Shown: positions 193-63,224, counted from the stretch's first letter. The stretch: DNA of 64,000 nt from Trichoplax sp. H2 (GCA_003344405.1 NOWV01000013.1:620001-684000); one strand, 5' to 3'. Notes: generated by a model from the letters alone, not told the origin. Program-made: numbers and translations.

Positions 193-335
193 TTTGATAG
201 GATTTAGTTGGTTTACAGCTGGCAATCTGTTCTGAATAAAATCTTGATTACTCCGCTATGGCGACTGCCGAGTTTGGAGGCAGTAGGAATCAGCTATGAA
301 TCAACGTCTCGGGTTTGGCGAAAGGAAACATCAAG

Positions 336-735
336 CGCATGTCACGTGAAGATAAATTGTATTTGGGCTAGAGTAGAGTACTTAGTGCCGTGGCTCAGTA
401 CTGTACGGTCATGAGTAAAACTTGGAATACTGTACTGTACATTGCGCATGTCACTTGAAGATCAATTGTATTTGGGGTACTGTACACTACAGTAGATACA
501 GTAGAGTACCAAGTGCCGTGACATACAGTACAGTAGTACACAATACTATACTGTACGGTTATGCGTAAAACTTGGAATACCGTACTGTACACTGCGCATG
601 TCACGTGAAGTTCAATTGTATTTGGGGTACAGTACAGTGGATACAGTAGAGTGCTGAGTGCCGTGACACAGTACTGTACTGTACTGTACGCTCATGAGTA
701 AAACTTGGAATACTGTACTGTACAGTACTGTAGTG
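336..735. repeat. Tandem triplication (~110-150 bp unit) upstream of ATP6V1E
   Basis: The block GCGCATGTCAC(G/T)TGAAG..AATTGTATTTGGG...AGTGCCGTG...TAAAACTTGGAATAC recurs at about 336, 444 and 594. Copies differ mainly in TACAG/TACTG insertions. Confidence 0.9.
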
Positions 736-1332
736 TACAGTACATACAGTACAGTACCGTACAGTACCAAACACGTGACACTACAGTATTTTGCTAGCAA
801 TTTCAAAATTCCTGTGCCTGAGTACTGTACACTGTACAGTACTGTACTGTACAGCCACAGTACTGTATACTGTATGCCAAGGCTTCTGCGATACGCTAAG
901 TAGGATTGAACAGGACTACCAACCAGCTTGCAGTGCCAGTGGCTAGCAGAAGTGACGTCACTGACACGTGCCCATACAGGATAATGTACTGTATGGTACT
1001 GTACAATGTACTGTAAATACCAGCACATGCCAGCGTCCGACGACTAATCCTTGCAGTAGGACTAGTAGTAGAACAGTGTGCTACTGTAGATTGGACGAAA
1101 AAATTTGGCTAGTAGCAGAACAGTGTGCTACTGTACTATAGATTGGACGAAAATTTGGCCCGATTCAAAATTCTGATGAAGTTACTACTATACAGCACTG
1201 TAAACTGAGTCTACAGTACAGTATGACTGTATCATACAGAACAAGCTACTCAGTAAATTCACTCCAACGCCCATGAAAGTCTCTCAGCCTGATAGAACTA
1301 CAGTACAGTACTGTATCCAGCTGTCATGTGAC
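341..1332. promoter_or_regulatory. Cluster of CLEAR/E-box/M-box-like sites and a CRE in the ATP6V1E upstream region
   Basis: GTCACGTGA at 341-349 and 600-608 (variant GTCACTTGA at 450-458), CACGTGAC at 772-779, TGACGTCA at 953-960, GTCATGTGAC at 1323-1332. Confidence 0.55.
1063..1159. repeat. Short direct duplication (~47-50 bp)
   Basis: TAGTAG(T/C)AGAACAGTGTGCTACTGTA[CTATA]GATTGGACGAAAA(AA)TTTGGC occurs twice in tandem. Confidence 0.85.
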
Positions 1333-2580
1333 AACAGCTGTCAGCAGCAACTTGTTCCACACCATGATTGATCAATTCGTATCCACTGCTATTTCGGAAT
1401 TACGCTCAGTCCCTACATAATCGAAAAAAATAATATACACCTTCCAATTGAATGGATAGATTGATACTACAGCATACACTGAGCCAGTTGATTTACTTTA
1501 TTTATACGTCTTTAGATAAAACTTTCATGACCAATAATACACGCTTGCATTGCATTGCATTGCTATACCTGCAGGAGGAGTCAATTTATGTTAGTAATGA
1601 ATGTTTCTGTACCAAACGTGTATTATTTCCTACTTTCCTTGCAGTGATGCTATAAATTGTTTGAAATTCCTGACAGTAGATTACTATACAATAGGTGTGT
1701 CTCAATCTGCTCTACGGACTACCAGCAAGATGTCCTTATGATACTGCGGGTGTTCAACCCGGTAGATAAACAGGACACGCGTACTTACACGCGTATCATG
1801 ATCAAATCATTTTACTATCTTGGCTATAAATTCTTACTAATACTTAAATAGTTCAATGGCGATGGTTTGAACAAATGAATAGTGATCTTTATTAACCAAA
1901 AGTGACATGAAACAATTATACAAATACAGCCGGGTAATAGTATCGCATACGACGACAAATCGTTTCGATTTTTGGATGCTCGTTAGGTGTGCATCAACTT
2001 TATGTTTATTACAAAGGTACCAGTACATTATCACTCTATTGGCAATAAATCTACACTACAAATACATTGGTAGTAACAGATCATCCTAAAGTCATGTATA
2101 GTACAGTAAACAAATATTGATGGAACAAATACAATGTTGACTATAACAATAATATAAAAATAGAAACATAGTTGAACGCGCAAGTAATTGAACATTTTAG
2201 AATCACATTTCTGTAATTAATATGAACTCATAGAGAAAAATATCAAGGCCAACTGCAATTTCCAACTCGAATACATTATCATCCTATTTGACCTACCAGG
2301 ATTTTCCTGTACTAGAATTGAACAGATATTGGTGTGCACATATAGAATAACAAAGGCAAAATATGCTATAAAAATATAAGCAGATGCGATCAAGTGACGA
2401 AGCGATATAACGTACAAGGCACATAAGTACTGCATATAACACACCAGTACACTAGTCGATCTTGCTATACAGCCATATTGTACTTTACAATTTTTTCGAC
2501 ATAATACAGTATCATTCCTTAACTTAGGATAAGGAAAAAATATTAATATCAAAATTAAATACGTTTACCGATCAAATAAT

Positions 2581-5500
2581 CTAACGGTTGCTATCGATAG
2601 GAATTTTACTTAATTCAAATAAACAATACGCGAGCGCCGAAGATGCTTCCAGGTTATCAAAGGCCAAAGATGCCAAATGTTGCTCGTACCGCCTAAGAAG
2701 ACTGACAGAAAAAGCTCAAAATCAATTCCTTGGCAAACAAAAGTTTTTTCATCAATTTTGATATCAATAGCTGTAGCTTTTGATACTACATACGTTTTAG
2801 CTTCGTGAGTAAATTTAACCAAATTGCGTAACGTTAATGCGGCTGTTAACCGAACGCATTTTGTTAACGGAAGTTCATTTTCCACCTTTGTACAAAGAAG
2901 AAATAAGTTCAAAACGTTGATACACCATTTAATGAAATAGAAATCAAAGTTATAAACCGCGTACTGTGAGTGGAATCTTTGGTTGAGGTGCATACGATTT
3001 CCTAGTAATTTTTTCATTTGATATTTCACCATAATTTTTTATGTGCTTCTAAAAGCGACACCGTAAATCGAAAAATAAATATTTTTCAACTTCATAATTT
3101 ACTTAAAATAGGTTACGAGTATAAATTAACCTGTAGATGAAATATCATAGAGAATCGAGCTCTTTTGACACGTTTTGTAGTGTCATTTAAACAACCTTCC
3201 CATCCACAAAATCCTTGAGAATTATTAGCATGCACATTATAAACATGACTAGCTAGATCCTTCACGTTCTCATAATGCCTATAGAGATAAAAGAATGATC
3301 AACACATCGATATCTAAATTCTACGATACAGAATAACCATACTTGAATACTCTTTTGCTAGATAAACAATGTATGTAAAGCGCATATGCAGTTACTGTAT
3401 GTAACGTACCGTTGGCAATCGTTCCATTTGCAAAGGTACGTTGCATTTTCCGTCTGTTGTTTAGAAGTACCAGTAGCTGCAGTATCTTCTTCAGTAGTGT
3501 CTAATTTATTCAAGCAATTACCGTTCGCTTGGCTAACTTGAGGGTATGCCTGTGTAGGTTGAATTGTCGTCGTGCTAGAACTGGTAATGCCAGCATTCGG
3601 TAACTGTTCATGATTATCAGTCGATAACGTCAAATCAACACTTAGTTGTCCATTAACTTTATTATCTATTTGACTTATTGATGATTTTCTCTTTAATGAT
3701 GTTATTAATTCAACCGATTTCTCTCCATTACTATTATTATTCAACCCTTGCAATTCAGAATTTTCAAATCTCTGATTAAATCCTTTATTACAATCCTTGG
3801 AAATAGATATATCATGCGTAGAAGTTATATCCTTGCGAAATTGTAAGGTTGCACCATTCTGTAAGTTACCAATAACTTTTGGTAAATTAATGCTTGCTTT
3901 CTCTGTAATGTTGCAATTCTTGGAACCGCTTTCGCTGGTTGTTCCGTTAGTATTATCGTCGTCTTTGCTACCGTTATTACTTACGCCTGAAGGATGCAGA
4001 AATCGAAAAGAGCAATCAGATAAAATTTGTACTTTAACGGAAGAAGTCGAAAGACTAGTAGAAGCAGGCTGGTTACTACCTAAACTTGCGTGTACTGTTG
4101 CGACGCTATCAGCTGTTGTTGCGGCAGAATCTTTACTAGTCATAGAACTAGGCGTGGAGTCACAAGATAGAGAAGCGACAACTTTGTTACTACTACCAAA
4201 ATTTTCTTGTCTTAAAGTAGTTGGTCCAGTTGATGCATAATTGCTTCCAGAAGACAACCCTTTATTACGAATATTAGGGTTCGCCAACGGCATTTGAACA
4301 AATTGAGTAGTTTTTTTCAACATTTGACTAGGTAGTCGGATAGCGCCTAACTGAGAATTTTGTTTTTGCGAATCGATAGAGAACTGCGGTCCTTGAGTAC
4401 TAGTGTCGATTCTTTGTAAATTAGCAGTTATATTACCCATACCACCACCTTGAGTACTAGTGTCTATTCTTTGTAAATTAGCAGTTACATTTCCCATACT
4501 TCCACCTTGAGTACTAGTGTCTATTCTTTGTAAATTAGCAGTTATATTACCCATACTTCCACTGTAAGGTTGCACAGTGGGAGTCATGTAAGGCATTTGA
4601 CGTCCCTGAACAGTACCGACAACAGTAGATGTCCGAGCAACACTATTCATTACAGGTAATGTTGGCGTTCGATTAACATTGGAATGTCCTATTAATGGAA
4701 TAATCATATGAATGAGAAAAATAATAACCAACATACATTGTGAATAAAGCTTAAGCGTAGTAATTACCAGGAGTATAAGTAAATGGCAACGGTCGAGCCC
4801 TTTTCCGAACACCAGTATAAAAATATTGATTTGTGTTACCATAGGTAACACGCTTAATTTCCGCAGATGGAAATACTTCGTGTATTAAGCGACTAAATGT
4901 CGTTGAATTAACGATACCAGTGATACTAAGTCTATTGCAGGTAGCCAAGTAATCGGAGTACATACCACTCCGTGGTACATACCCACCGGTACAACAATCG
5001 TAAGTTGCATTTAACCTACAAGGAAATATTAGCATTATTTAAAGGTTTTCAATATAATTTCGATGGGGTACAGAAGCCAATACAGACCATGCATGTGCAA
5101 AATTTTCGTTTTCTCGATCTATTCTTGACATTTCCTCGGCTGATCGAGATACTACAGGGCTAATAATAGCTGCTATATCCGCCATATTATTACTTGACAC
5201 CTGAGGTGGCTGCGCTTGTGCAATTGTGGAGGCGCTAATCTGCGATCTTTTATCGAAAAGAAAAATACCAGCCATGGCCTCTTCGCCGAATTTGTGAACA
5301 TCAAGGCTTACCAGACTGACCAATAAATCTACAAATAATGATAATTGATAGTTGACTGATGATAAAGATATTTTTAGGCATTTTCATCACTGGTATGACA
5401 TTACATGCTATGCGTCTATCACCAATACTTTTAAATAACACAGTACAATATTCGAAATTAGTAACGTAACAATAATAACTCAAGACGACTAACCAATGGA

Positions 5501-8500
5501 GTGATTAACTGCTAACACTTGACAGCATGTAGCTTCTCCTAATCCAGTTAAGGCGCAAAGAACATCTAAGCTAGTAATGAGAAGCTGAGATAAAAAAAAG
5601 CACAAATTCAATCCATTAAAACTTATAAGCCAAATGTAAATCCTAAGAATTAAGTGCTCAAAATTTAAAGAGTAAATACTGACATCCTTCTCACCTGAAC
5701 ATCAGGAACTGTTAAATAATTAATAACTACACTATAAATACTTGAATCGGTGACATTAGATATAACTTCACTATGATCAATATTCTCACATAAGCCTGCA
5801 GTTATTTCCATTCCTGAAAGAAAATCAATCGGTGATATGTATATATATGTATCTATTTGCAAGGCACTACAAAATCAAGATATCGAAATGTAGTATTGTG
5901 ATGATACTGCTAAAAACAAGCGGTCATACCCGTTCGTCATTACAAAATGTTTGTTTAAGACTACCGCAGTTTAATACCCTGACAACTAAACAATTAGTAA
6001 TTAAATACCTTTCAGAATATCTTGCTTATCGATTGATTTTATAAGTCTCCAAACATATTTTAATAAGATTTGAGTTCGATAATTAGTCGGTGATTCCAGC
6101 GATATCTAAGCATGAACATAAAATTATCACGGTTTGATTCACGTATCAAATTCTCCTGATAACAAGCGACCAGATCATCAGAATTTCATTTTACCTCCGG
6201 AGATAAGTTGCTTAGCGTTTCTAAAGCGTTACTTCTTAGTGATGAAATATTACTACACATGCATAGTAACAGGAATCTTTTATAAAATGGATTATAAAAG
6301 CCAAGTTAGTTTATATTTGTAGCATTAAACAAATCTTACCAAATGGTTCAAAATTATAAGTACCTTAGGCATACATCAGTATTTGACAAAACAACTGCAT
6401 TGGACTTTATAAACGATAAATTAAGGACTATTACCGCAACCTATTGAAAGACGAACTGTCTTAGTACAGATCACTCATTACTAATAATTAAGTATTAAGA
6501 TATTACATCAGCCTACTAAAAATCGGAAATCAGTACATCATACCCTTTCAAGTCTATCAATTGCTAGCCTCGACAACTTCCCCGGATAATGATCGAACAA
6601 GTTATCATCGTTATTTTCTTCTTTGGAATTATCATCAATATTCCGATGGTCTAATTTGTAACGCAAGATCAATTAAAGTGTCATAACACAGAAATTGTGA
6701 CATATTTTAATCATCATCTACCAGGAAATGGTCCATAAATCAATCTCTTAATTTCATTATCTTTCACACAGCTTTCCCAAAACTGAGAAAAAAAGGAATT
6801 ACAATTAAACCAACTCATCAGAACTACCCCATTCCGTAATAAAATTCATTAGCAGATACAGTATGGCAGATTACAATTGTTTCAAGAAAATTTAAATTCT
6901 TACCTTCACAAAATTTATTTCAGGGACGTTTAAAATACTTCTATCATTACTAATATGCTTTGCGTAATCTTTGGACAATTATAAATAAAGAGTAAATAAC
7001 ACAAGATTTACGCGTTCTTGCCATATCGTAATTTACAAATTCATAACATCAACTAAAATCAATATACCTTGTTCGAATAATCCCACTATAGCTAAGAGTC
7101 TACGAATAAAACATGGCATCTACACATAGAATAGCGTAATGAGTAGGTGTAAAAATATTGCAATGGCCAGTTTTAGTATCACTGTACTAGGTGTACAACC
7201 TTTACAATTAGGAACGGCTTATTAGTGTCATAAGACATTTCAATTAAGATATGTAAGGCAAATTCGACTTCATTCGGTAAACCCGACTCTAGAGCTAACA
7301 TCAATGTGTCCGATGTTCTAATACCACCTACTCAAGTAAATATTATCAAAAGCAAATTACTTATATATTGTATATATTTGCGCAATTGTCAAATGCTTAT
7401 AAAAATTAATTTAAATTTAATAGTCAGGTTTATCATTACAGAGCTCATACAATCTAAGGTTAATAAGTTTTCTATTGTAATTACATTGCATATAGCATCA
7501 GCTAACGGTTAATAGGCAACCGAAGGTATTTTAAAATCTTAAACTGTCGCTGTTATCCATAGATTATAATCATGGACAAAGCAACATTGGGTATCTTTCT
7601 ATTAGAGCATTTATTATAAAAATCTTAAGGGTTCAAATATTTACGTTTATTAATTATCCATATTAACGTTACTAACCTTCTATTGAAGCACTTGCCATTC
7701 TGTCGTAGGCTAATATTAGAGAAATAAGGACAAATAAGGAAAAAGTTAGCAATAATAATCACACCCGAAAATAATAGATACTACAAGATACTATTACTAT
7801 TATGCAAAGCTAACAATATAATCATTCTCTCGGTGATCATGTAGTAAAAAATAAAGAACAAGAGCTATAGCTATCGATACGGTTGCTATTTATTGACTTT
7901 CACATCGAGTAATATAAATGTATCGTAGAAACATCATCGATTCCATCATTATAATTTAATGATGTATGTAATTCCTCATGAGGTTTGATTATCAATGTTC
8001 AATAATATAAAGATATTACATAAGAGATATTGATTAGGTAACGTTAAAAAGATTAGTTAATAAAGAGTAAGTCAAGATACCTGTCGCGTGATTGATCTTA
8101 AGTCGACCTGAAGAAATAATATCTTCAAGGTCTTCATTGAAAAAATTGGTTTTCTCGTAAATTTTAAAATACCTTGGTATAAAATTGTAGAAAGATGACT
8201 ATTAACAAGTGAAATCCTGGTAGTTTCAAGTTTAGTATCGAAAATACTACAAGGTGAATAACAAGATACATCAACAAAATGAAAATGTGATCACTTTATT
8301 GTTGAGCTTCAGGGCAAGTCGGCAGTGCAGTATGAGAATCATATCATGTGGTGTAAGCTTCTTTTAAGTTTAATATTCAACTTTCATTACAATTTTAAAT
8401 GCACGAAATCAAGATTAATTAAACGTTTTCATCTAAATAGTTTTTATTTCCTTTTGATTCAAACTGCTAATTTATCTTGGGTGCCATTGTATGTTAATAT

Positions 8501-10350
8501 AGATTTATTTCTTTATTTTGTCGTACTATTCAGGATAGTAAGTAAAGTACTGTACTACATTACTATGCGTTAATTACCTTCGATTTATTTCGTACAGCGA
8601 TCGATCCAGAACAGATAATATAGTATTGTACTGTATATGGTACAGACTGTATACTGCAGTTTAGTAGGTGATTTTAAATCCTTATCCCGGCATATAGTAT
8701 GATTAACAGTAGTATAGTAAAAGCTTGATTCTTCCAGATGTAATAATTATTACGCGTAATTATTATCTTTCTTTTTCTTATTATTACACTATGTGTTACT
8801 TTGCACTAATTTGCGATTTATTCTATTGGGCTTCAATAACGGTACTGCTGTATTGTGCTTACTTGTGCTCAATTGTAAATATCCCTAACACTAAAATCTG
8901 GTAATTATTATTGCTAAAATTGCAGGACTTTGGTATGGAACTAGCAACAAACGACGTAACTTTCGGCGTTGAGCATAGACATAACATAAATCGTATACAG
9001 TATTGTAAAATTTGCCGTCATATTACATTATCTAGGAAATTTTTTATAAATTATTCAGTTTATGTCTATCGATGCACTGTATTGATTTGATTGCTGCACA
9101 AATTTGAAGACATTTGCATAGCGCAATAGATCGTTCAATCACTGCTATCAAAGGATTATAGGCGTAACAAGTGAAAGCAATAGATCAGACTAAAAGACGA
9201 AATGGATACGCTTTTGCTTTAATCCTTGAATGCTTATAATTGGTTCTAGCTGGCGTAAGTTTTCAGTCCAAATCTATGCCGTACAGGTAACCTACTGTAT
9301 TATTTAATGATCAATATTATGCACGTACGATGTATTGCAGTCAGCTAGAAGATACTGTTAGTATTGGAAGTAAATTGAAAAAGACAGTGTGGAAAACATT
9401 AGGATATCATTCAAGCAACCATTAACAGTCTACTGTACGAAGGGAATCAATCAATCGAGATGAAGGACACCCATGAGGAAAAATAAAGAAGATTGGTCGA
9501 GAATTTTCAGAGTATAGATGATATAAATTATAAGTGCGCTATTTTATAGATAGTCCTAATGCAGACGTTCATCGGTTGTATTGTATTGCAAATGATTTTA
9601 GACCTGAAGAAGACAACTATCATGAAGTTGTATCTCGTAGAGCAAAGTTTTTGGACACAAGTCAAGACAATTTCAAGACAGCAAACTGCAAGCATATCCA
9701 ATAGATAAATATATTGACCAGCTCATTGGATCAAAGTTATCTTACGCCATTACTATTTATTATAGTACCTTAAGTAGAATTGACGTAGAGCATACGAACT
9801 ATTAACGCATCCATCAGCAGGCAACTTCAAAGCTTCAGCAATTTCTGTCCATTTTCTTTGGCTAGTTACCTATTATTATAGATTCATTAATGATACGATA
9901 TCGAACCCGCTCTTCTAGCTGAGAGGAATGTAGAAAAAAATAATTGCATAGCTAAACTAGGAATACCTGAGCGCAACCACCACATGAAGTTACTTTACGA
10001 TACAATGCAGCTAGATCAACCTCTTTACCGGCAAACACTGCTTTATCAATAAATGGTGATCTAATAGTATATAACACAGTCATGATTAAGATGCAATGTC
10101 ATTTCAAAATTTTTTAAATTTTACTGTCCATTGGATTCTTCAGCCGCTGGCATCGTCAATGTAGAAGACTATTTGCAATTTGCTATATCGGCCATTTTTA
10201 GCTGTATTTGAATGCTTGTTTAGTTATATCATGAAGAAGCATATCAACTTACCCGATAGACTTGTGAAAACTTTTTAAATTTTCTAAAAATTTATCACCG
10301 CATGGCCGGGAAGTTGGCCCGAATAACTCGTTGCTCCGATAGGATGACAT
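2581..10350 (-). CDS. ARID2: AT-rich interactive domain protein 2 (BAF200, PBAF subunit), multi-exon
   Basis: Exons 10253-10350, 9967-10060 and 9769-9869 encode an ARID domain (FLENLKSFHKSIG|SPF..GKEVDLAALYRKVTSCGGCAQ|VTSQRKW..SSYALRQFYLR). Then LALESGLPNEVEFA (~7260-7300), an RFX-type winged helix (~4770-5015), two C2H2 fingers (CKWNDC..H, CGWEGC..RFSMIFHLQ) and the C-terminal VRLTAALTLRNL..LEASSALAYCLFEL. Stop TAG at 2581-2583. Confidence 0.95.
4391..4561 (-). repeat. In-frame coding tandem repeat, 3 x 57 bp, in ARID2
   Basis: Units start at 4391, 4448 and 4505 and translate as G(S/G)MGN(I/V)TANLQRIDTSTQG x3. Confidence 0.95.
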
Positions 10351-10784
10351 TACTGTTGAAAAAGAATGGCTATATCGACCTTGTTGGACACTGGGCTAAT
10401 AATGTACTGTACAGTATAGGTCTCTCTCTCTATAATACAGACTATCTTAAAGCACGTTAAAGTGATAAACTGCTATAGAATATTCAAATGGGATAGTTAG
10501 AGTAAGAATTTAATTGGAACCTAGACGATTTCAATGTGCAATGGATTTCTTTTGCAATTTTGACTTGCTTGAAGTTGATTTCCAAGTAAAAAGCAACACA
10601 GAGCGAAGAAGATTCTGAGAATGGCGCGGACGCAGCAGTGGACGGACTTCAATGTTGATTGCCTCGTTCACTATAAGCGCTTCCGTACTTTTGTGAGCAT
10701 GCCCTGTTTGTGTTGTTCTTCTAGCGCCATAACTCGGACCTAAACGGTCCAGCTGGTCCACTAGAAATACCGGTATTTTAGTCC

Positions 10785-11090
10785 ATGGAGTACAGTACAA
10801 TGCTACAGTATACAGTACTGTATAGTATGTTGTGGCGTGTAAAATGGCTGTCATCCCATCCAAATGATTGCCAATGAGGATGAACGATGAGTTACTGGGC
10901 GCTAACACGTGATTTATGACTTAATGGGTGATATCATTTTTGGGTACAGTACAATGCCTTTGCATTGTACTGTACCATACTGTAGTGTACTGTACAGTAC
11001 AGTGTACACTGAGTGTACAGTACCGTAAAAGTGGAACGCAAGCCTCATACGTGCTGACGGACGGACTTAGCATGCTGGATACAGTACCAA
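10785..11090. repeat. TACAG/TACTG-saturated tract upstream of ARID2, including a perfect hairpin
   Basis: Runs such as TACAGTATACAGTACTGTA and TACTGTAGTGTACTGTACAGTACAGTGTACAC; 15-bp inverted repeat GGTACAGTACAATGC-CTTT-GCATTGTACTGTACC at 10943-10976. Confidence 0.85.
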
Positions 11091-13018
11091 TCTCTATCAG
11101 TAAACAGCATCTTGTAGCATAAACTGGCGCTTGATGGTAGACGACATAACAAGTTATAAAGCAAATTTGAAAATTAATTAATGAACAAAAATCTAAAATC
11201 AAATTAAAACTAGTTTATGCCCCACTGTTAGAGCAGATAAGACCCTCGCTAGCTGTTCACTGCACCAAGATTGTGCTAGTATGGTACTTTAGAGTTCTAA
11301 ACTACTCCATCAACTACTGTACTCCGAGTGTGACCATTCTACATGCGTACATATTGTACAATCTAGATGGCGCAATGCAATCAATTCAATTCAATTTAAA
11401 TCGGCATCCAGAAATAGCGGCTATATAATCTTGAAATTAATAATATTTGCCATAATACAAATAAATATTAATTATCGTGGTAATAATAAGTATTAACTGC
11501 AATCTGAAATAAGGTGTCGTAATAATATACTGTACCTAGAAGATTTTCTAGTTTAACAACATCTCGATACCAGGGCATATTAACTGATCGCTACTAACGT
11601 ACTAAATTGGAAGAGCATAGTTCGACCAATGTTAGGTTTGGAATAAATTATAGCGATAGTACAACATCTTCGAAAGCTATGTTTTGGATTGCTACTGATT
11701 CTATTGCTCTTACTGTAGCGGCTTCTACAGTAATTGGATCTAATCGACGTTTAAAAATAATGCAGTACGTGCTTGTCATACTATGACTGTATACTATATG
11801 ATGTGTAGTGAACACCATTTTATCCAGTAGCGAACTATGGAAATGATAGATTTGCTAGTTTTGAATTGTGAATTCGTGATCCATTTTACTGCCTAGCTAA
11901 TTTAAGCCCAAATCTGCTAAAAAAAAAGTCCAAATCCGTAGCAAATTCTAGTTACAGCAATACTATAGTACGTAAATATTCCTTTATCATGTTTGCAAGA
12001 AGAGTAGAAAAAATATCAAATTGTAGGCGCGTATATGAACGTTCTTGTTCTGATTTATTTCCATTGCTGTTCTACGTTAGACCCTACTTTGCAGTTTCTT
12101 TGACCTCAAATTTAGGGCTATTACGCGTAGAGCTGATTTTACAACATTATTATATAATGATGGTAAGGAACAAATCGAATAAAACTAATAACAACGACTA
12201 TATATTTAAGGAAGGATTAGGTTAGACATGGACTTTTTTCTTGTTGTCCATGAGTTCCAGTTACTGTAACAGATGGCTAAGACGGTACCGGTACGACAGA
12301 CTCGTATAGTAAATACATTCGATGAAATGGAATAGCAGTTTATTCCCATGACATATGAAAACATGAAACACCAAACTTTAGTTACGGACAGCAATCATAT
12401 CAGCAGTGTCCGTCATAACTTTCTAATCTCCTTCTAATTAATTATGTGTTGATAACATCACGTACTACTATAGCACTAGGGATTATCGGATAAGCATCAT
12501 ATCCCACTAGAGGTAATAATTAAATTATTAAAGCATTAACGACAACATTCCTGATGTCGATCCCTCTGCTGAGCTGATCTTAGTATTCCATTTGTGCTGA
12601 TACACCATCAATACGCGCTATATTTCGCGCAGCTACGGACGAAATAAACTACAATTATATTGTCGAAAATCTATTTATTATAATGATACCACGCTATAGA
12701 TTACACTATAGTATGAAAGACTGAAATTTGACACCTTTCACAAATACAGAGTGAAAGAATCTAACTGTTAACATCAAATAAGCCTTAATATATAAAATTT
12801 AATGCAAATTTACTACTGGTTAGGATAGTTGATGGATTTATCCTTTAAAATGTAATGAAACTATCTACCTAGGTTGAAATAGAATAATGTAATAAAAATA
12901 AATAAATTATAAAATGATTATAAGTTACCATACTTCATACATTTAAAGCCAAAATATCCAGTATAACTTTAATCTTTATCCTGCACTTGTTTTATAACAT
13001 TAGTATTGCAGTCGAAGA

Positions 13019-14548
13019 TTAGTTAGAGCTATTCCTAGAATTGGAATTAGCAATATCGATGTAGGCTTTCAATTCTTGATCTATCTCCTTCCATATGGTA
13101 ACATACCTTTATAGATATTGCAACATTAACAAGATTAATTGAATAGTGAGAAGATAAAAAGTAGCAATAATAATGCCATTATAGTAGTATTTGTAGTGCA
13201 GATATTATTGACACAATCGCTTTTATCAAATTTATACTAACAGGTGAATAATTAAGATTAAGGTTACATATCCAAATAAAATGTAATATTACCGATACTA
13301 AAATTAAATACTATCGTCACAATAAGTGCAACGGTATGTAATAACTTAAGTAGAATTTCAATTCTAGTTAATACAACGTTTTTAATCGCCTTGTTTAAGG
13401 TAGCCTTGAATACAAGAATACTTACTTTCCAACATCGATAGGGACGCCTTCCTTTGTATATACTGTAAACGTTCCACGCTCGAATAATAAATCATGACCG
13501 ATTGCACCCCATTCAACCATCGATACTTTACCATGAGTAGCTCCTTCTCTTTTCAATGATCGATAAAATTCTGTTATTGCTGTAGGAAAGTGTAAAATTT
13601 AACACCTTAATGCTTACACCAAACATTTCCAACCAAAAGTAAATATGACTTTTGTACTGGCCAGTATTGTATTCTTCTTAACCCATTTAATGATATTATC
13701 GAAGCAATTGCTTTTTAAATTCATTAAAGGTAATTGTGTCAATAAAGAAAGCCCAAGAATGGGTGCTGATAATACCAAATGGTTAAAGTAATTTAGTTAT
13801 CTGGCATTAAAAATATATTTTATCTTACACAGCATCCACCTTAATTATTCGGCGCATACTACTCGCAAACGTTTATCATTTCGAATGAATCGCGGGCCAT
13901 TAGCTGATCTCTTTAACTATTTTATAATTCATATTAATCACGAAAAAATGTTGTATAAATCTTAGGGACTGTCCTATTCCGACTTTACGACTGATATAAT
14001 AATTAAATTAAAAAATTAGTGGCATTGTTGGTAGTACCAGGTACTAGGAGGCAGTAGTAGGTATACATGATTTTTTAAAATAGGATGGATGGTCAAGGTA
14101 TGTAAATATTATATACGTGTATGCAGTTTGGTACCAAGGAAAGAACATAATTTGGGGCGTATTATGAGATATGCGGTACTATTTAAGAGGACTAGAGTAA
14201 TAATATGTGGTAGTACCTAGAACTACACTTGAGATTATAACTTTACTGGTTACTACTTTTACCGTCTAACATTACGTGAAATATTGTGACCAAATGATGC
14301 TGTAAATCACACTTTAGTCACTCAAGCATGAATTTCCTACCTTCATTGCCTATGACTGATTCATATCCGTGGGGCATTAAAGTGGCATCGGAAGTATACA
14401 TTGATTTTATCTCATCAAGGTTGTTACTATTCAATGTATCATGAAATTTCTTGCTAGCTTTACTAATCTTATCGCCGATATCGGACTCTGAGCCTACAAC
14501 ATTAAGAGAGAGAATAACACAAAGAGATAGCAGAAATGTTAAGAGCAT
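13019..14548 (-). CDS. Secreted NTF2-like / ketosteroid-isomerase-like (DUF4440/YybH-type) protein, 149 aa; exons 14341-14548, 13426-13579, 13019-13106
   Basis: GT-AG splicing gives a continuous ORF: hydrophobic leader MLLTFLLSLCVILSLNVVG, then MYTSDATLMPHG..VIGNEAITEFY, ERGTFTV..IDVGKYVTIWK..YIDIANSN. The pattern resembles DUF4440/SnoaL-like NTF2 folds; family assigned by motif recognition only. Confidence 0.8.
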
Positions 14549-42765: not shown

Positions 42766-42857
42766 TTATTCCTGATTAAAGAATTTCTGTGGTATCCTTT
42801 GTTACATTAGAATAACATCCAAAAGACAGTTATTACGTTTATTGAACTCCATTTTGG

Positions 42858-51800: not shown

Positions 51801-53474
51801 GGAATCCATTATTTTAGCAGTTATTCCTATAACATCAAGAAAGGAAAATATCTTAACAAGGTAGTTTAAGAGCGAAAGCTGAGTTGGTTGAATGGAGATG
51901 AATATACTGCTATAGCAATTTGTTTGGATGATAATATTAAGGTTGTAGCGTAACAAAGTTAAAAGAATGAGATCATGTTAAAATCATTTAACGTATCACT
52001 AATGACAGTTGAGATTAGTGGATTGTATTTATCCAGTATTACCTTCATCCATAAGATCATTAGTATATTTAGCAACTAATTGGATAAATTCTTCACCCAG
52101 ATCAGAGTCATTAGAGCCATCAAATCTCCATTGAATGAGCGATCGTAAAGAATAGGAAAGACAGCGGCAACCATCGTAATACAGTATTATAGCTAAAGGT
52201 AAACGTTGTAATCCAGGAAAACGTGGTTTCTGATGTTCACTAGCTAAGAGTAACTCCATGGAAGCATATTCGTTTAAATCTAAAATATCGCTTAAATTAA
52301 GAGCTTCTTCGATGAAAGACTGACTGAAAATGCGTGGAACTGGTTCGCCATAGACTTGAATGCCAGAAGTAGCGCCATGTTCTTTGATATTTTTTCGGTC
52401 TAATGCACTTCTCCTCTGTTAGGAAATAGTCATAACAAGTTTATCATTTAAAGCTGTTATTTTGACATGATCGAATTATGCAAAGTGTTGGAATGATATG
52501 CTACGCTATAGCCATGTTCCAATCGTGGTTGGCTGAGTGTAGCGTCTATATCTCTCGTATAGTACAGTACATAGGTAGTTGGAAGTTGCGCTATATGCAG
52601 TATTGCCTGCATCAAGGTAAATTTGAGTTGAATTGATTTGTATCATGGCGCCTGGTATATCGATCGATTGATACGACTGTTGCATAAGTTTTTAAGTATT
52701 TTTACGCCTACTGTAGAATGGTCAATTTATTGACTTGATGCAAGTTGTCTGTAGTTGAATAATTTTATTCTGTACAATAGCAAGATATTATTTTCTATCC
52801 TTGCTTATGTGGCTATTATTTTCTATCCTTGCTTATGTGGCTATTATTTTCTATCCTCGCTTATCTGGCTATTATTTTCTATCCTTACTTATACGGGATT
52901 AGACTAATGTAGATCAAATCATTGAAAAGGATGACAGAAAAGTGCTTATGACACTTAAAATGTTGTATCATCGTTAAAAGAGATGCTACATAATGAACTA
53001 ACCGTTGAGGAGAAGAGAGATAACAACTGAGGTTTATATTTTTTCAGTACTGTTTCAAATTCATGGTAATCCGGTAGCTTGTCCAAAGTCAACGTCGATT
53101 CGACAATATGCCAAATTTCTTTACTGGGACCCCAAACTATATATTGTTGGATAGATTGGCAAGAAATGAATGAGTATGATGTATGCTAGACAAAAAATGA
53201 TTGCATCATTCTACTAGTATCGTCGATGAAAGAAGACTGTCATTTTGCAGCCTATCCAGCATCTCGATACATGAAGTCATTGGTTGATAGCTCGTTCAAG
53301 TGAAATGTTAACTTTCTTTAAAATACGTTCATCTTAAAGTGCTTCAAGACAATTTGTACATGTCTATCCATAAATGATGATGGAATCAATATCAATAAAA
53401 TGATCATTTTAATTTGAGCAAAGAAGAGAATTGATTACTGTTGTACCTCCTCGAACTTGAGTGGAGACCGCCAT
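42858..53474 (-). CDS. NUP205: Nuclear pore complex protein Nup205, many short exons
   Basis: Exon 1 (53447-53474) MAVSTQVRG splices to VWGPSKEIWHIV..LKKYKPQLLSLF. Further motifs: EALNLSDILDLNEYASMELL, IGELYKTDP..LEYWC, LKAEILLTLAGFAKS, APSLAHFLLGYD, WLLKCIALEL, YIIENSLYVVWHHLEYF, and C-terminal IYGKDKSRLEFIHALIR. Stop at 42858-42860. Confidence 0.95.
43600..43723 (-). other. Candidate U12-type (minor spliceosome) GT-AG intron in NUP205
   Basis: 5' splice site GTATCCTTT; branch-like TTCTTAGC shortly before the 3' AG. Splicing joins ..TNYF|YIIENS.. in frame. Confidence 0.75.
52786..52892. repeat. 28-bp minisatellite (~3.8 copies) in NUP205 intron 2
   Basis: TATTATTTTCTATCCTTGCTTATGTGGC at 52786, 52814, 52842 and 52870 (last partial). 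Confidence 0.92.
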
Positions 53475-53511
53475 TCTTGGAGCTCAATTGGCTTGGATTG
53501 TAAGTGCTTGC

Positions 53512-53945
53512 AGGCTGCGGGCTGGTAGCGCAGTCGTGCAGGGCCATCTACAGTACCCAGCTCAGTAGAGTACAGTGCAGTGCAGTAGGGTACAGTACAG
53601 TACTGTACTGTGGAGTAAAGTACTGTACACTGTACTGTACAGCCATGAACCACTAGAAATACAGTACCGTACAGTATGGCACTACGGCTGCGGGCTGGTG
53701 GCGCCTGCGCAGTCGTGCAGGACCATCTACTGTACTGTACTGTACTGCACTGTACACTGTACAGTATTCTTCTAGTAGTCTTTGCTATAGGCTAGCAGTT
53801 TGATATTGTCCTGCGCAGTAGAGTATTACCTGTGTGAGTACAGTGATTTTCTTCACCTGTACTGTACACTGTACTGTACGACTGTGTGAGACTGAAATCG
53901 TCTCCATCAGAATTGGACAACGACGACTTATTGTACTGTACACTA
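53512..53945. repeat. NUP205 upstream region: duplicated GC-rich block plus TACAG/TACTG-saturated tracts
   Basis: GGCTGCGGGCTGGT..GCGCAGTCGTGCAGG.CCATCTAC at about 53513 and 53686, each followed by TACAG/TACTG runs. NRF1-like GCGCCTGCGCA at 53701-53711. Confidence 0.8.
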
Positions 53946-54270
53946 GTGACATTACTTTTGTTGGAGACTGCTGTATTTGGAGATTTGGAGCGATTAGCCT
54001 TTATATACAAGTGTACAACTTTTGTAATGTACTCAACGTTGTGTACCATGAGTGCATCGATTATTACAAAAATGATGTCACTATTTGGTACGTCAAGTAC
54101 ACAAGGGGCTATTATCAATAGACTGTTTGGTGTAAAATAGAAATGGCCATTTTTTGAAACCATAGAAAATACTAGTCATGACAGGATACGCATCAATGAA
54201 TTGAGGAATTCATTATTTATCCATCCATTAAGGTTAATCTACAACGACAGAGTCGCTGTCCTCTCCTGTA

Positions 54271-55187
54271 CTATGAAGATGGAAGGCGGCGAAGAAGCGC
54301 CATGGTACACCGGTACAGTGTCAGGTCTAGACTAGCGCCCTATGACTACAATGTACAGTGTACAGTACGGGGTATCGCGCTGTACTGTACACTGTACTGT
54401 ACACGCTTCTCCTATGAAGATGGAAGGAGGCGAAGAAGCGCCATGGTGCACCGGTACAGTGTCAGGTCTACTGTACTGTATGTAGACTAGCGCCCTATGA
54501 CTACAATGTACAGTGTACAGTACGGGGTATCGCGCTGTACTGTACACGCTTCTCCTATGAAGATGGAAGGAGGCGAAGAAGCGCCATGGTACAGTACAGT
54601 ACAGTGTCAGGTCTACAGTAGACTAGCGCCCTACAGTATGACTACAGTGTACAGTGTACAGTACGGGGTATCGCACTGTACTGTACACTGTACACGCTTC
54701 TCCTAGGAAGATGGAAGGAGGCGAAGAAGCGCCATGGTACAGTACAGTGTAGCACTGTCAGGTCTAGACTAGTGCCCTATGACTACAGTGTACAGTGTAC
54801 AGTACGGGGTATCGCACTGTACTGTACACTGTACACGCTTCTCCTAGGAAGATGGAAGGAGGCGAAGAAGAAGCATGGTACAGTGTCAGGTCTAGACTAG
54901 CGCCCTACTGTATGACTACAGTGTACAGTGTACAGTACGGGGTGTCGCGCTGTACTGTACACTGTACACGCTTCTCCTATGAAGATGGAATATGACTACA
55001 GTGTACAGTGTACAGTACGGGGTATCGCTCTCTACAGTACTGTACTGTACTGTATAAAGATGGAAGGAGGCGAAGAAGAGCCATGGTACAGTGTAGCGCT
55101 GTCAGGTCTACTGTAGACTAGCGCCCTATGACTACAGTGTACAGTGTACAGTACAGGGTATCACGGCCTACTGGACACTGTACACGC
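54271..55187. repeat. Tandem array, ~7 copies of a ~130-148 bp unit, between divergent NUP205 and E2F7/8
   Basis: The unit CTA(T/G)GAAGATGGAAGGAGGCGAAGAAGCGCCATGG..TCAGGTCTA..GACTAGCGCCCTA..CGGGGTATCGC..ACACGCTTCTC starts at about 54271, 54412, 54555, 54703, 54844, 54977 (internally deleted) and 55057. Confidence 0.95.
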
Positions 55188-55210
55188 TGCATCCATTCAT
55201 CAAGGCTTGT

Positions 55211-55269
55211 GATTGGCTGCAATTTAAATCATTCACGCCTGCGCTGTATCCACCGTCTTTTCGCGCGAA
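55211..55269 (+). promoter_or_regulatory. Putative cell-cycle promoter core for E2F7/8: CCAAT box, CHR-like TTTAAA, E2F site
   Basis: ATTGG at 55212-55216, TTTAAA at 55223-55228, CGCCTGCGC at 55236-55244, TTTTCGCGCGAA at 55258-55269. Confidence 0.55.
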
Positions 55270-56103: not shown

Positions 56104-59100
56104 ATGTATACCAATAATCCAGTACAAGATCCTATCCCGATGCCATTGGCACAGGATAGCAATTTATCTTATCGTTTCACCAACACCACCATGGCATCGT
56201 GTAGTATCGATGCTATCAACAAATGCTCTTCACCAACGCCAATCAGCACATCGTTACAAGAAATCCCGCCAACCACACCGGAAAAAAGTATTCGTCGTGC
56301 TGAGGATATTACTGTACCATTGACGCCAACTGCCAATTTGAAAATGTTGGCATCTGCTGTCAGCCCAGTTTTGAGAAATCGTGAAGAAAGAAAGCGTCTT
56401 TTCACTGAATTGCAAACTTCTAGTAGTAATTGTTCAGAATCAGGAGATTCAACAACAGAAGCAAAATCAACCACTTGTTTTAATAGAAAGGAAAAATCGC
56501 TAGGCTTGCTATGTCAGAGGTAGGGTATTGGCAAGGATCGATAACCTTTTCAAAATTGCATCTTGCTTACATTTATAAAATGGGGTCAATCCAATGATTC
56601 AACCATACTTTTCCTCTCCTTTCATCCTTCAACAGTAAATTAGAAATTAACTTTGTGTTCCTGTAGAAGACGACATTCCCAACCTACTGTACAGTTTTCC
56701 ATCATAATCACCATTGTAAAAAACTTCCATTTCCAATACCATTTCATACACACCCTCAATCCTAAGAATTCTTCGCCAATGTTGCTATCCACTCTTTCAT
56801 TACATTACAATATTGCTAAAATTGCCAGTGTCCATGAATACTCATGCAGTAATGGATTCAAATTGACACACAAATAGGCCAAATTCTATGCGGACCGTAC
56901 AATAATAGAAAAAATACCTAGTCATACAGTACTCAACACAAGCATGACTGTTCTTCTACGTTAATTTGATTCTTAGAGAGAATGACTTTTTGCACCCGTA
57001 GATGTAGTACTGCAAATGTATTCACACAAATGCCATGAAATTGATTTGGACTATTCTTTCCATCTAGGCTACAAATGATCGTCATACTACACTTTTTATT
57101 CGTGATATACTGTACGTATAGCAATGGTACGTTTTTTTCATAATACAAACATCAAGTAGCTAGTAAAAAGAATGTCAAGATATCGCCAAGTCGTTGATTT
57201 TCTACTTACGATGTTGCAATCAATAGTGGCGTTCGAGGTATAAAGGAAAGCATTGCAGTGTAATGCTCGCCTCAATTTACTTTCAATGCATATTATCCAA
57301 TATACAATACTGTAGGTAGTTGCACATGATACTACATAAAATGATAGAAGACGTATTTGCAACTCAAAGCGAAAGGCATATCTTCCATCCTAGACTTCCT
57401 TTCATACTACACCTGCAGTATACAACAGTATATCGATGATTACGCAGCACTATAAAAAAGTAATCAATTAATCAGATGGATCTGTCTAATGCATTGCGAC
57501 TTAGCCGATACAAAATAAAGAGGATACTATTAATAAAACTCCTGTAAAGGATATTACACATCATACCTGTCTGCTTTCTAAACAATGATTTGCTATTTCT
57601 AGGTTTTTAGCACGTTATCCCGAAAATTCAGTTCCAGGACAAGAAATTGAAATTTGTTTAGATCATGTAGCGAAGGAGCTCCGTAAGTCTTTATAATGTA
57701 ATAAAATAGTCAAGAAAAATAACAACATATAAATAAAATTGGTCTCAATTTTTTAAAATTACACTGGCTGGGTATTTATAAATTTGAATTTTCCTGATAT
57801 AGAGGTGGAACGGCGAAGAATCTATGATATTGTCAATGTACTGGAAAGTGTAGAAATCGTCAGTCGATTAGGAAAGAATACCTATGTTTGGCATGGAAAA
57901 AGGAAAATTGCATCCAATTTAGCCAAATTAAGGGTAAAGATTTACGATACTGTACAAGACCTCAATCATAATATCACAATAGTACCGCTAACAATGATAT
58001 TCTTATAAAAATGATTAGTCTTTGCTTTTTGATCACTGTCACACTTGGTGTAGATGTATTTATACTTTATTAGTATTTTAAGTATGACCAATAAATGCCG
58101 TTATGCCCTTATTATTATCATCATCCATTATAATCATACCTTTGTGAATTATTCTAGGCGCATTTGAAACCTGCAACGCAAGGATTGCAAAACATAGATT
58201 TTAGTAACATCAGTTTTAGGCAGGAAATGAATGTAAGCTATTGAGAAAGTATTTCAAAGAGCATTTTGAATCTATAAACGTACATCTGTTTGATATAGCT
58301 TAATATCTATTTCTTATATTTTAGCTTTCAAAGAAACTTTCTCCAATGGAAGCTAAAAAAGATTCTTCCAGTGCTAGAAAAGGTACTGATACAACGTTCA
58401 CACTTATGCCTTATATTGTTGACATGTTGTATTTGGAATTCATCATTGCTTCTTAATCCATCATAACTGACCTAAAGAATAAAAGATAATCTGTTTTTCG
58501 CTTTGATTGATACGTAGAAAACGCCCGTAAAGATAAATCGTTGGGGATGCTAAGTCAAAAATTTATCATGATGTTTATGGCTTCCGCGGTAATTGCCAAT
58601 ATACGAAATAGGATATCGTTGAGTAATTATTTTCGGCCTTTAATGACAAATTGTGTCATTTTTTCGGAAACAGACGGAGATAGTCACCTTAGATGAAGCA
58701 GCACAGGTCCTAATCGGGAAGCAGCCAGCCGAGAAGGACTCGTCTAAATTTAAAAGTAAATTGTTGTTCTTTAATAACATGATAACGCTGGGTAATAATG
58801 TATGTTTAGCTTGGTCAAGTCATGATAGTTAATTCTCTTGTGCTATGTTCATAGCTAAAGTGAGAAGACTGTATGACATAGCCAACATTTTATCAAGTCT
58901 TCGGATGATTGAAAAGACTCATGTAACTGAATGCACAAAGGGAAAGAAACCGGCGTTTAAATGGATAGGACTTAATTTCAGTACGCTTCCAGGTATGGTT
59001 ACCGTTAATGATTTTACTTTACAGTGTCAATTATCAGTTGCAAGCTTTCTCATCCAGTAGGTAGTGCTCTTTGTACTAAGAAATTTTATTAAAAGTACAA

Positions 59101-60853: not shown

Positions 60854-62242
60854 TATTATTATGAGAGATACCTGCTATATTAGTTTTATTCTATGATTAT
60901 AACTAGTGTTTGACTTGGACTGAAAATGAACTTAATAATATCTCTACTACGTAGCCTGGATGGAGTTATTTTCGCTCGCTATTTTGATGGTGATGATAGA
61001 ATTATGAGGATATTTTTTGGCAACAATTCACTTCCACGTAAAACTGTTTACAATGCACACTTTACCCTTGAAACTATATAAGATCTAGAGCTAATATTTT
61101 TTATAGTTGAAAATTTTTCTATCGATTTTCTGATGGATGTCCTCACGCTTATAATACAGTACTTTTGATTTTTATAACATTTTTGGAATAATTCTATTTA
61201 CATCCTGCTAATGAAAGCGGAACTCTAATGTATGATAACTTGAAACATAATAAATGTATGAGCTTACATATGTGTACGGCTTGGGATATTTCGTTGTAGA
61301 TTACTCTCCTTTAACCTTTAACAAGAAAAATAAAGGATGGGATGATGAATAGTACATTACCTGCGTGTTTACGTCAACGCGGCGTTATTTCGATCTTGAA
61401 CTCTTGTCGATTATAATAATTATTATACGCGTATTATTGCCTAATTTTGGGTCCATAGATTGTTTGTAATGTACAGTAGTCTGTTCAAGGTCGCGTTTTA
61501 TTTTTCATGTTAATTCAACCCTAAGAGAAAATTAGGATGAGAGCGGTCTAGCGGCCTTGGTGAATTAGTACGACGTATCATTATTGGATGGAAAGCAGGG
61601 TTAGTAGTCCTTGATTCTTCCATAAAATTTATCCGTTTAGGAAGCTTGTGAAAACAGATCCAGCTTTCTATTCCAGACCACCTAGACTATTATACTTTGG
61701 TAATAAGCTAGTTGGATGCAGTAGTGTAAAGTTAGGCCCTAAACTCGCAAGATCTCTATACGCGAAAATCGACCTGCAGTAAGTAAACAAATAAATCAAA
61801 GCGCAAACTTGATGTAATGGGCGTGCTCAGTTTCGGTCCGATGATTTTGGTAGGTGGTGCTGTTGGCTTCTAGAAGTGACATGATTTTTGCTACTGGATA
61901 TCATAATCGATCAACTCAGTCACTCATTGCTAGACTGCACCAATAATATGGTAGTGTCTTTTCTCGTCTTTAACTTAGCATGATGAGCAAAATTGATGTC
62001 ATCATTGTGGTTTCAAGACTACAGTACCGCACTGTCGTTTTGGTTAATGTCTCCAAAAATAAAATAAATGATCATGTACAAATCAAAAGGATGTACACTT
62101 GTACAGTACTGTAGAATGTATTTGTCATATTTTGGAGATATTTAGACGGCCAGAAGCACCGTTCATGATTCCATGTTTATTCCTTTTTAGAGTCAGGCAA
62201 GTACAGAAATCCTCAGTCTAATTGTTCAATTTTAGCAACTTG

Positions 62243-63067
62243 GCAAAATTGATGTTTTGGCCATAGTCTAGTTGTGACCATGCAGTACTAGAGAATGGAA
62301 AAAATATTGTTGCTCAAATGCTCAATACACCTACTGTACTGTGCTAGGCTGAAACTGGAGTACTGTATAGTAAGCTGTAGTTCTAAGTCCATATTGCATA
62401 AATTACTTCTACTAATTTATGCAAAATGGCTAGTCTCCGATCATGAACTTGGAGACACTACAGTTTGGTGCCTGGCACCTTACTGCTTTAATAATGCACA
62501 CAGCCATTCTGTAGACTACAGTACTAAAGAAGGTCTTGCAAAATTGATGTCTTGGCCATAGTTTCGTTGTGACCATGCAGTACTAGAGAATGGAAAAAAT
62601 ATCAGCAATATTTTTAAAAAATATTGCTGCTCAAATGCTCAATACACCTACTGTACTGTGCTAAGATGGCTAGTCTCCGATCATGAACTTGGAGACACTA
62701 CAGTTTGGTGCCTGGCACCTTACTGCTTTAATAATGCACACAGCCATTCTGTAGACTACAGTACTAAAGAAGGTCTTGCAAAATTGATGTCTTGGCCATA
62801 GTTTCGTTATGACCATGCAGTACTAGAGAATGGAAAAAATATTGTTGCTCAAATGCTCAATACACCTACTGTACTGTGCTAGGCTGAAACTGGAGTATAG
62901 TAAGCTGTAGTTCTAAGTCCATATTGCATAAATTACTTCTACTAATTTATCCAAAATGGCTAGTCTCCGATCATGAACTTGGAGACACTACAGTTTGGTG
63001 CCTGGCACCTTACTGCTTTAATAATGCACACAGCCATTCTGTAGACTACAGTACTAAAGAAGGTCTT
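62243..63067. repeat. 3-copy tandem repeat (~295, 240, 290 bp) rich in short palindromes
   Basis: Units begin GCAAAATTGATG at 62243, 62538 and 62778. The middle copy has an internal deletion and a small insertion. Confidence 0.95.
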
Positions 63068-63224
63068 TGATAACTTGATTTGAATTGATTTCTTACTCGA
63101 TCATCCAAGTGTATCATATTATCAGTTCGACGCTTACGGTAGTGCACCAGTTAGCAGCCATTAATAATATTTATAGACAAGAGTTATCGAGGTGGAAAGT
63201 AGTTGAGATAGATCGAATCGGGAC

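Follow-up and report, generated by a model that had tools for sequence, protein, structure and literature searches.

Upstream (ACAGT)n tracts of Trichoplax as candidate excision footprints of a TA-targeting transposon

How does one short, TA-bounded sequence come to be piled up in front of genes in a placozoan genome? The question is raised by a stretch of 64 kb from Trichoplax sp. H2 (GCA_003344405.1, NOWV01000013.1:620001-684000; 33.7% G+C), referred to here as the window. Within it, the units TACAGTA and TACTGTA, and a longer form TACA[CG]TGTA, are crowded into three tracts that lie 5′ of genes; relative to a bare TA, the shorter unit amounts to a gain of 5 bp and the longer to a gain of 7 bp. 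The tracts are (ACAGT)n repeats of Trichoplax adhaerens. The observation itself is not new, because the tracts correspond to the published (ACAGT)n microsatellite, whose upstream association was reported in 2010 (PMC2871265). On balance, these repeats are most likely built from a scar of excision, left behind by a cut-and-paste transposon that targets TA, belongs to the Tc1/mariner/pogo superfamily and has ends CAG (probably CAGTG)...CTG.

A survey of T. adhaerens recorded 11,697 microsatellites, among which pentanucleotides made up 61.8% (7233) (Wang et al., 2010, Biol Direct 5:18; PMC2871265). ACAGT accounted for 78% of the pentanucleotide simple sequence repeats and was the major simple sequence repeat of the genome; of its loci, 54% were found no more than 1 kb upstream of a gene and 85% no more than 5 kb (PMC2871265). 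Sequence, organism and gene-upstream bias are the same in the window, the tracts of which are instances of this class. Perfect tandem ACAGT-type repeats of more than 12 bp, as specified in the survey, are present as the run TACTGTACTGTACTGTA at 672-688 and 53728-53744, and the three dense tracts lie within 1-5 kb upstream of genes. The accessible text of the 2010 paper treats ACAGT as a perfect-repeat microsatellite and possible transcription-factor binding site; within that text the TA phase, the A/T centre, the 7-bp variant, the single units and a transposon origin are not considered. An origin from footprints is apparently unpublished, and it is judged plausible, leaning towards correct: no published statement of it for Trichoplax ACAGT was found by a search that reached few subscription journals and no supplements.

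The abundance of the units was compared with 200 dinucleotide-preserving shuffles of the window. The raw counts, which are inflated by tandem duplication (a 141-bp array of seven copies at 54276-55210 and a three-copy repeat at 335-700), come to 166 TAC[AT]GTA in 64 kb against a shuffle mean of 15.0 (standard deviation 3.7, maximum 27), and to 26 TACA[CG]TGTA against 1.0 (maximum 4). With strands merged, TAC[AT]GTA is the leading 7-mer of the window. An earlier reading made from the sequence alone (hereafter the sequence-only reading) had described dense tracts of TACAG/TACTG motifs, and this control confirms the observation. Outside the three tracts, 72 TAC[AT]GTA remain where about 14 are expected, and 56 single units stand at least 50 bp away from any other unit. 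The same motifs emerge when none is preselected. When all TA..TA spacers of 1-7 nt are tallied, CAG/CTG ranks first (166 against 14.9 expected, z ~40) and CAGTG/CACTG second (26 against 0.85 expected, z ~30), and the ranks below these are fragments of unrelated tandem repeats. TAC[CG]GTA (13 against 5.5) was considered as a second class and rejected; 4 of the 13 are point-mutated units within tracts and the others are scattered.

The anatomy of the unit is narrowly defined. TA..TA spacers within the tracts are 3 nt long in 130 cases and 5 nt long in 41. The 3-nt spacers read CTG 50 times and CAG 44 times, and any other sequence 6 times at most, so that variation is concentrated on the central base, which is A or T at a ratio near 1:1; outside the tracts the CAG:CTG ratio is 37:35. 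The 5-nt spacers read CAGTG 15 times and CACTG 8 times. The register of the unit was examined by counting, for each of five phases, the stretches of the periodic pattern that are exactly 7 nt long, with expectations taken from 60 shuffles. The TA phase was observed 47 times against 10.7 expected. The A phase (2 against 1.6), the C phase (15 against 8.7) and the W phase (11 against 9.4) lie close to their expected values; the sole other excess is in the G phase (7 against 1.6). The unit is thus TA-bounded, which tells against a generic microsatellite or the copying of arbitrary microhomologies, because either predicts isolated units in all five registers. In a logo of the flanks of 99 single units, position -1 shows a slight preference for G (0.34 against 0.21), and no motif extends further. 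At 17206-17228, TACTGTA-TACAGTA-CG-TACAGTA places units of the CTG, CAG and CAG types on three neighbouring TAs in otherwise unique DNA. Among neighbouring 5-bp units in stacks, 17 pairs share the same sense and 10 have opposite senses; 10 opposite pairs out of 27 is not the result expected of pure slippage.

Comparison of paralogous copies allows filled and empty sites to be placed side by side. Two sites were followed in six copies of the 141-bp tandem array at 54276-55210, which was delimited by TRF and alignment. Site A (CAGGTC-TA-GACTAG) is a bare TA in three of the six (54328-54329, 54765 and 54893); the others carry TACAGTA in copy 3 (54614-54620), TACTGTA in copy 7 (55109-55115) and, in copy 2, TACTGTACTGTATGTA, which consists of two 5-bp units and TGTA (54469-54484). 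Site B (GCCC-TA-TGAC) is a bare TA in four copies (54341, 54496, 54778 and 55127), holds TACAGTA in copy 3 (54632-54638) and TACTGTA in copy 5 (54906-54912). A further case lies at 62361-62367, where TACTGTA occupies the context CTGGAG-TA-TAGTAAG, and the paralogue has a bare TA at 62896-62897. In copy 1 of a 169-bp array, TACAGTACAGTA is found at 26348-26359, and the other two copies have TAGAGTA at that place (one of them at 26690-26696).

A self-BLAST census of paralogous alignments returned 34 insertion rows with a modal length of 5 bp. Twelve of these rows are five-bp insertions and represent 10 distinct events: eight were scored by script as TA+C[AT]GTA units, a ninth, at 54391, was recognized as such by eye, and the last (GGAAA, 23918) has no relation to the unit. 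The bare-TA sites count against an origin by slippage, because slippage needs an existing repeat and cannot make a unit at a bare TA. Were new units to arise solely beside identical units, as slippage alone would have it, neither the bare-TA gains, nor the 56 singles, nor the 10 opposite-sense pairs among 27 would be expected. Read as losses, sites A and B would each demand A/T transversions that hit precisely the central base. Loss of units by deletion between TA-TA microhomologies was considered for them and set aside as less parsimonious, as CAG and CTG versions occur at both.

Several features of these repeats may be recorded in their own right. Each copy of the 141-bp array holds a conserved G+C-rich block, GATGGAAGGAGGCGAAGAAGCGCCATGG, and a palindrome, GTCTAGAC, at site A. 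By eye and uncounted, footprint-type indels in this array seem roughly as common as point substitutions; the local rate of events per TA would in that case be high. The 169-bp tandem repeat spans 26190-26705 in three copies with 92% matches, and the length of its (TA)n run varies between copies. Lying 3′ of the E2F7/8-like gene, at 62230-63100, is a dispersed or tandem repeat of ~240-290 bp with copies starting at 62505, 62745 and 63035 and a partial one at ~62230. Its units predate the duplication, because each copy has units at the same places.

The three tracts occupy 5′ intergenic DNA. Tract 1 (396-1320), delimited by counts and by reading of the sequence, lies 5′ of ATP6V1E (minus strand) and 3′ of the ARID2-like gene. 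It contains 40 TAC[AT]GTA within 300-1400, with stacks that include 672-688, 711-732 and 823-851. Tract 2 (10405-11086) has its units 55 to ~730 bp upstream of the start codon of the ARID2-like gene (10350, minus strand), with 13 TAC[AT]GTA within 10380-11120. Tract 3 (53549-55153) is situated in the divergent intergenic DNA between NUP205 (minus strand) and E2F7/8 (plus strand), with 41 TAC[AT]GTA within 53500-55220. TRF assigns a period of 5 to 711-767 and 53563-53642, and smaller clusters of units occur at 26-27 kb and 62-63 kb. The counts of 40, 13 and 41 in these intervals bear out the placement of dense tracts at the 5′ regions of ATP6V1E, ARID2 and NUP205/E2F7/8 made in the sequence-only reading. 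The scattered copies that it named are all present (8548, 8629, 17206/17213/17222, 26348, 27658, 52563 and 62102), and its statement that coding exons hold no stacked runs is upheld among the exons that could be mapped. In these, one single unit at 3393 touches the edge of an ARID2 exon, and three single units fall in exons of UTP20/NUP205 for which open reading frames (ORFs) served as a proxy. The gene bodies of UTP20 and NUP205 (22.7 kb together) hold 7 units against ~5 predicted by shuffling. From the position of the tracts, the responsible agent may have preferred promoters.

Tract 1 overlaps a tandem repeat of ~110-150 bp at 335-700, the three copies of which differ mainly by TA-bounded units. 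The copies begin GCGCATGTCAC[G/T]TGAAG, and two of the three contain the E-box-like sequence CACGTG. CACGTG-like sites recur at 773 and 966, and these sites in tract 1 may serve as genuine elements of the V-ATPase E promoter. Between the NUP205 5′ exon and tract 3, at 52786-52892, a 28-bp unit occurs 3.8 times in tandem (94% matches).

The sequence of the unit is that of a known scar. Excision of Sleeping Beauty leaves TACAGTA and TACTGTA as its canonical footprints (PMC6943129). In Tc1/mariner excision, the transposase cleaves the non-transferred strand slightly within the element, a few nucleotides from its end, and once the DNA ends are joined the terminal 2-4 nt stay behind between the duplicated TAs (PMC6943129); the footprint is usually 2 or 3 bp (PMC3464196). 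The likeness to the window units extends to an identical 7-bp sequence, a TA on both sides, a central A/T and a net gain of 5 bp at a TA. An event at a TA that leaves the scar flanked by TA is what the phase excess and the paralogue comparisons at sites A, B and 62896/62361 display, and terminal nucleotides in the range of 2-4 nt give TAC(A/T)GTA for an element with CAG...CTG ends. The TA phase, the alternative central base, the bare-TA gains in two orientations and the isolated singles therefore fit an origin from footprints.

The proposed sequence of events would begin with the insertion of an element at a TA, which is thereby duplicated. Excision by the transposase would leave 3-nt 3′ overhangs, with CAG on each flank. 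These overhangs could pair despite an A:A mismatch at the centre, and end joining would then resolve the junction to TA-CAG-TA or TA-CTG-TA, leaving the site 5 bp longer. The less common gain of 7 bp, TA-CA[G/C]TG-TA, would arise likewise from a 5-nt stagger on CAGTG ends, as CAGTG overhangs can pair at four of five positions, and a central G:G mismatch would presumably yield CAGTG or CACTG. With every footprint supplying a new TA, repeated events in promoter-proximal DNA could build stacks of mixed orientation. These stacks would then be amplified by slippage during replication and by tandem duplication of the 110-150-bp units around them. A transposon would be the agent in this scheme, accessible promoters its preferred targets, and the element itself would now be rare or extinct.

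The window differs from known Tc1/mariner systems in several respects. Known footprints are single scars at observed element sites, whereas the window units are stacked, concentrated at promoters and present in a 5-nt version as well. They are also far commoner than any candidate donor element, unlike known Tc1/mariner footprints. A more distant comparison is offered by the internal eliminated sequences of Paramecium and Euplotes, which share TA boundaries; their ends, TAYAGYNR, resemble those of Tc1/mariner elements, and they are read as relics of transposon invasion (PMC3464196). In those ciliates the inserts are retained and are precisely excised in the soma, whereas in Trichoplax the inserts would be gone and the scars would remain.

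A number of results weigh against the footprint explanation. The foremost concerns the donor. A de novo scan of the window for terminal inverted repeats (TIRs), in the form of TA-CAG...CTG-TA pairs spaced 40-8000 bp, gave 47 candidate pairs, none of them convincing, and no TA-CAG...CTG-TA element in the window with an inverted repeat other than a footprint-like one. In 37 of the 47 the supposed TIRs are footprint-like sequences; the other 10 match at 13-14 of 16 bases, largely through the common start CAGTA. The pair 10793/10972 is among the candidates. Pfam searches of 55 + 142 = 197 ORFs of the window found no transposase domain, and no donor element combining matching inverted-repeat ends with a DDE/D transposase was found within the window. 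This agrees with the sequence-only reading, which had stated that no element is present. Transposable elements make up 0.13% of the T. adhaerens genome in the 2010 survey, including 11 mariner/Tc1 fragments, none with all the features of activity; three of the 11 have intact ORFs, without inverted repeats (PMC2871265). The 5-nt stagger required for CAGTG/CACTG exceeds the 2-4 nt quoted for the superfamily (PMC6943129).

Other expectations of the same explanation also fall short. A strong promoter preference is not known to be typical of Tc1/mariner elements. The shuffles show no enrichment in the window for CA/TG spacers (68 TACATA/TATGTA against 92.8 expected) or for the TACATGTA junction (2 against 2.9 expected), and the fill-in junction TACAGCTGTA has 0 occurrences in the window. 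The non-ORF DNA of UTP20/NUP205 carries 4 units in 7.6 kb, compared with a density of 1.72 per kb in the rest of the DNA outside the tracts. These introns should accept 5-bp insertions, so that such tolerance by itself does not explain how the units are distributed. Nor is orientation random. Adjacent 7-bp and 5-bp units share the same sense in 19 rows against 2, or about 10 against 2 once tandem copies are discounted, and the 14-mer TACTGTACACTGTA recurs at 823, 53621, 53860 and 54383. Several palindromes have CAG-type units in the left arm and CTG-type units in the right (54643-54695 and its copies, 10944-10977, and 53567-53597 with 53728-53758). That at 10944-10977 is a perfect 15-bp hairpin, GGTACAGTACAATGC-CTTT-GCATTGTACTGTACC, with a CAG unit in its left arm and a CTG unit in its right. 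Such palindromes suggest that a number of the long stacks derive from an extended piece of a single terminus (CAGTGTACAG...) or from internally deleted elements, instead of adding up independent scars.

The transposase footprint proposed in the sequence-only reading thus survives in part. Motif identity, TA phase, bare-TA gains and 5′ concentration speak for it, but the orientation of units is not random, the CA/TG spacers that it had counted in the same series are not enriched, and its argument that footprints persist where they are tolerated leaves the unit-poor introns of UTP20 and NUP205 unexplained.

Contigs from four coded sequencing runs were aligned to bases 1-20000, which places the tracts in a wider setting. 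In one run (X1), the bin 668-1334 reached a depth of 13592.7 against ~70 in its neighbours, a difference of ~190-fold, and the bin 10673-11339 reached a depth of 2178.9 in the contig alignment. The loose ends of thousands of contigs at the tract borders agree with one another at 0.36-0.44. Agreement this low indicates that the same short pattern is present in very many places with unrelated flanks, which fits the published locus count and counts against a long repeat family. Among the 12 indels listed out of 39, most are in tract 1 and have lengths of 5, 7, 9 or 10 bp, and one listed 10-bp gain puts a CAG unit into an all-CTG run. These strain differences are given little weight, because slippage, or the collapse of tandem copies, is another possible source of them. 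A query with the NUP205 5′ exon against metagenome contigs, in search of the orthologous locus, gave 137 pattern matches and no relative among them.

Three other explanations may be set against the footprint. In the published one, which is considered unlikely, (ACAGT)n is a motif-specific but otherwise ordinary microsatellite that originates and expands through replication slippage, and stays near promoters because a transcription or architectural factor binds to it. On the strength of the upstream bias, the 2010 survey suggested a role in transcription-factor binding (PMC2871265). Repeating ACGG and ACAGT emerged when Trichoplax Micro-C maps were analysed with a neural network and motifs associated with chromatin structure were searched for de novo (preprint 10.1101/2024.11.14.623548). 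The pure runs at 672-688 and 53728-53744, the TRF period of 5, the surplus of same-sense over opposite-sense neighbours (17 against 10) and the unit-sized length differences between strains all count in favour of slippage. It does not account for the bare TAs found at sites A, B and 62896 in other copies, nor for CAG and CTG versions at one site, and the dominance of a single motif, the TA phase of isolated units and the 56 isolated singles are likewise left unexplained by it. The microsatellite account is in part compatible with an origin from footprints, through later co-option, because function could explain the retention of the units and not their origin.

Less likely still, the tracts would be decayed termini or remnants resembling miniature inverted-repeat transposable elements, derived from a transposon with inverted repeats CAGTGTACAGTAC... 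or from the Mutator elements of placozoan promoters, with the ends left in place. The palindromes with CAG-type left arms and CTG-type right arms are readily accommodated here, as are the coupling of sense between 7-bp and 5-bp units and the one recurring 14-mer. Mutator duplicates targets of 9-11 bp and not TA. The clean 5-bp gains at TA are not remnants, the flanks of isolated units are unconserved, and the loose ends at the tract borders (agreement 0.36-0.44) share no common flanking or internal sequence. Placozoan housekeeping genes that take part in loops have been reported to carry Mutator insertions in their promoters (Kim et al., 2025, Nature; PMC12221973). The associated motif is a transposon-linked feature of Trichoplax housekeeping promoters of the looped (GP1) class, and the genes of the window (V-ATPase E, NUP205 and ARID2) are, in general terms, housekeeping genes too. 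In the accessible part of the preprint, the motif of the Kim et al. transposon, that of Mutator/GP1, is named as ACGG and ACAGT is listed separately as distinct from it (preprint 10.1101/2024.11.14.623548). Units could finally be templated insertions made during alternative end joining at promoter breaks and copied from near or distant ACAGT tracts, from which local clustering and both orientations would follow naturally. Any microhomology should then serve, yet the TA phase dominates (with G, 7 against 1.6, the only other excess), and 56 singles have no template within 50 bp; this route is regarded as very improbable.

The genes around the tracts were identified by similarity and domain content. 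An ORF of 508 amino acids (3361-4884, minus strand) is 100% identical to TRIADDRAFT_54817 of T. adhaerens, an ARID/RFX protein, and the corresponding ARID2-like coding sequence, with ARID and RFX domains, was traced by tblastn and Pfam across 2613-10350 on the minus strand, with its start codon at 10350. At the left end of the window, bases 1-46 (minus strand) translate to IHHMMAFIEQEAKEK, which appears to be the N-terminal part of V-ATPase subunit E, although Pfam gave no hit; the gene continues past the window's left end. A UTP20-like gene body extends over 29697-42594 on the plus strand (Pfam UTP20 and UTP20_N), and NUP205, of the Nup192 family, over 43000-52418 on the minus strand (Pfam Nup192), with an N-terminal Nup192 match at 52032-52418. 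The limits of both are approximate, and motif density in both is at background. Exons with two E2F_TDP DNA-binding domains, detected by Pfam at 57757-59057 on the plus strand, belong to the E2F7/8-like gene. Scans with Rfam at gathering thresholds and with ARAGORN gave 0 matches each, and the tracts therefore correspond to no known RNA family.

Some further features of the window may be noted. A 57-bp unit repeated three times (93% matches) at 4391-4562 encodes a 19-residue repeat in the large ARID2-like exon (3391-4689), and short-read contigs of run X1 end within it. The stretch of 12-29 kb is gene-poor; an isolated plus-strand ORF at 22253-22489 encodes an EF-hand pair (Pfam E 1.5e-11), and Pfam matched no other ORF there. 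The same stretch contains a young tandem array at 24008-24955 (also 23553-23924) with nested periods of 138, 249 and 387 bp and 95-98% identity, the ORFs of which have no Pfam match. An older 194-bp repeat adjoins it and holds TACAGTGTA (23798) and single units at 23585 and 23684.

Extended beyond the window, the footprint explanation leads to a broader proposal, which is put forward tentatively and with a probability well short of even. The whole (ACAGT)n class, comprising thousands of promoter-proximal arrays together with the singles, would be the fossil record of a TA-targeting, CAGTG-ended, Tc1/pogo-like transposon that inserted by preference at accessible housekeeping promoters and was repeatedly excised from them. 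The element would by now be very low-copy or extinct, in a genome with hardly any transposons, and its scars would have been co-opted as elements of promoters or of three-dimensional architecture, with their density recording past accessibility in cells equivalent to the germline.

The dominance of a single pentanucleotide and its position upstream of genes have been called intriguing since 2010, with their origin unexplained. The footprint idea can be tested directly with published placozoan assemblies and with ATAC and Micro-C data. If it is true, a genome described as nearly transposon-free hides a large record of cut-and-paste transposition, and excision footprints would seed microsatellites and lengthen promoters in 5-bp steps. 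The motif picked out by a model of placozoan three-dimensional chromatin would then have a mobile-element origin of its own, beside the reported link to Mutator.

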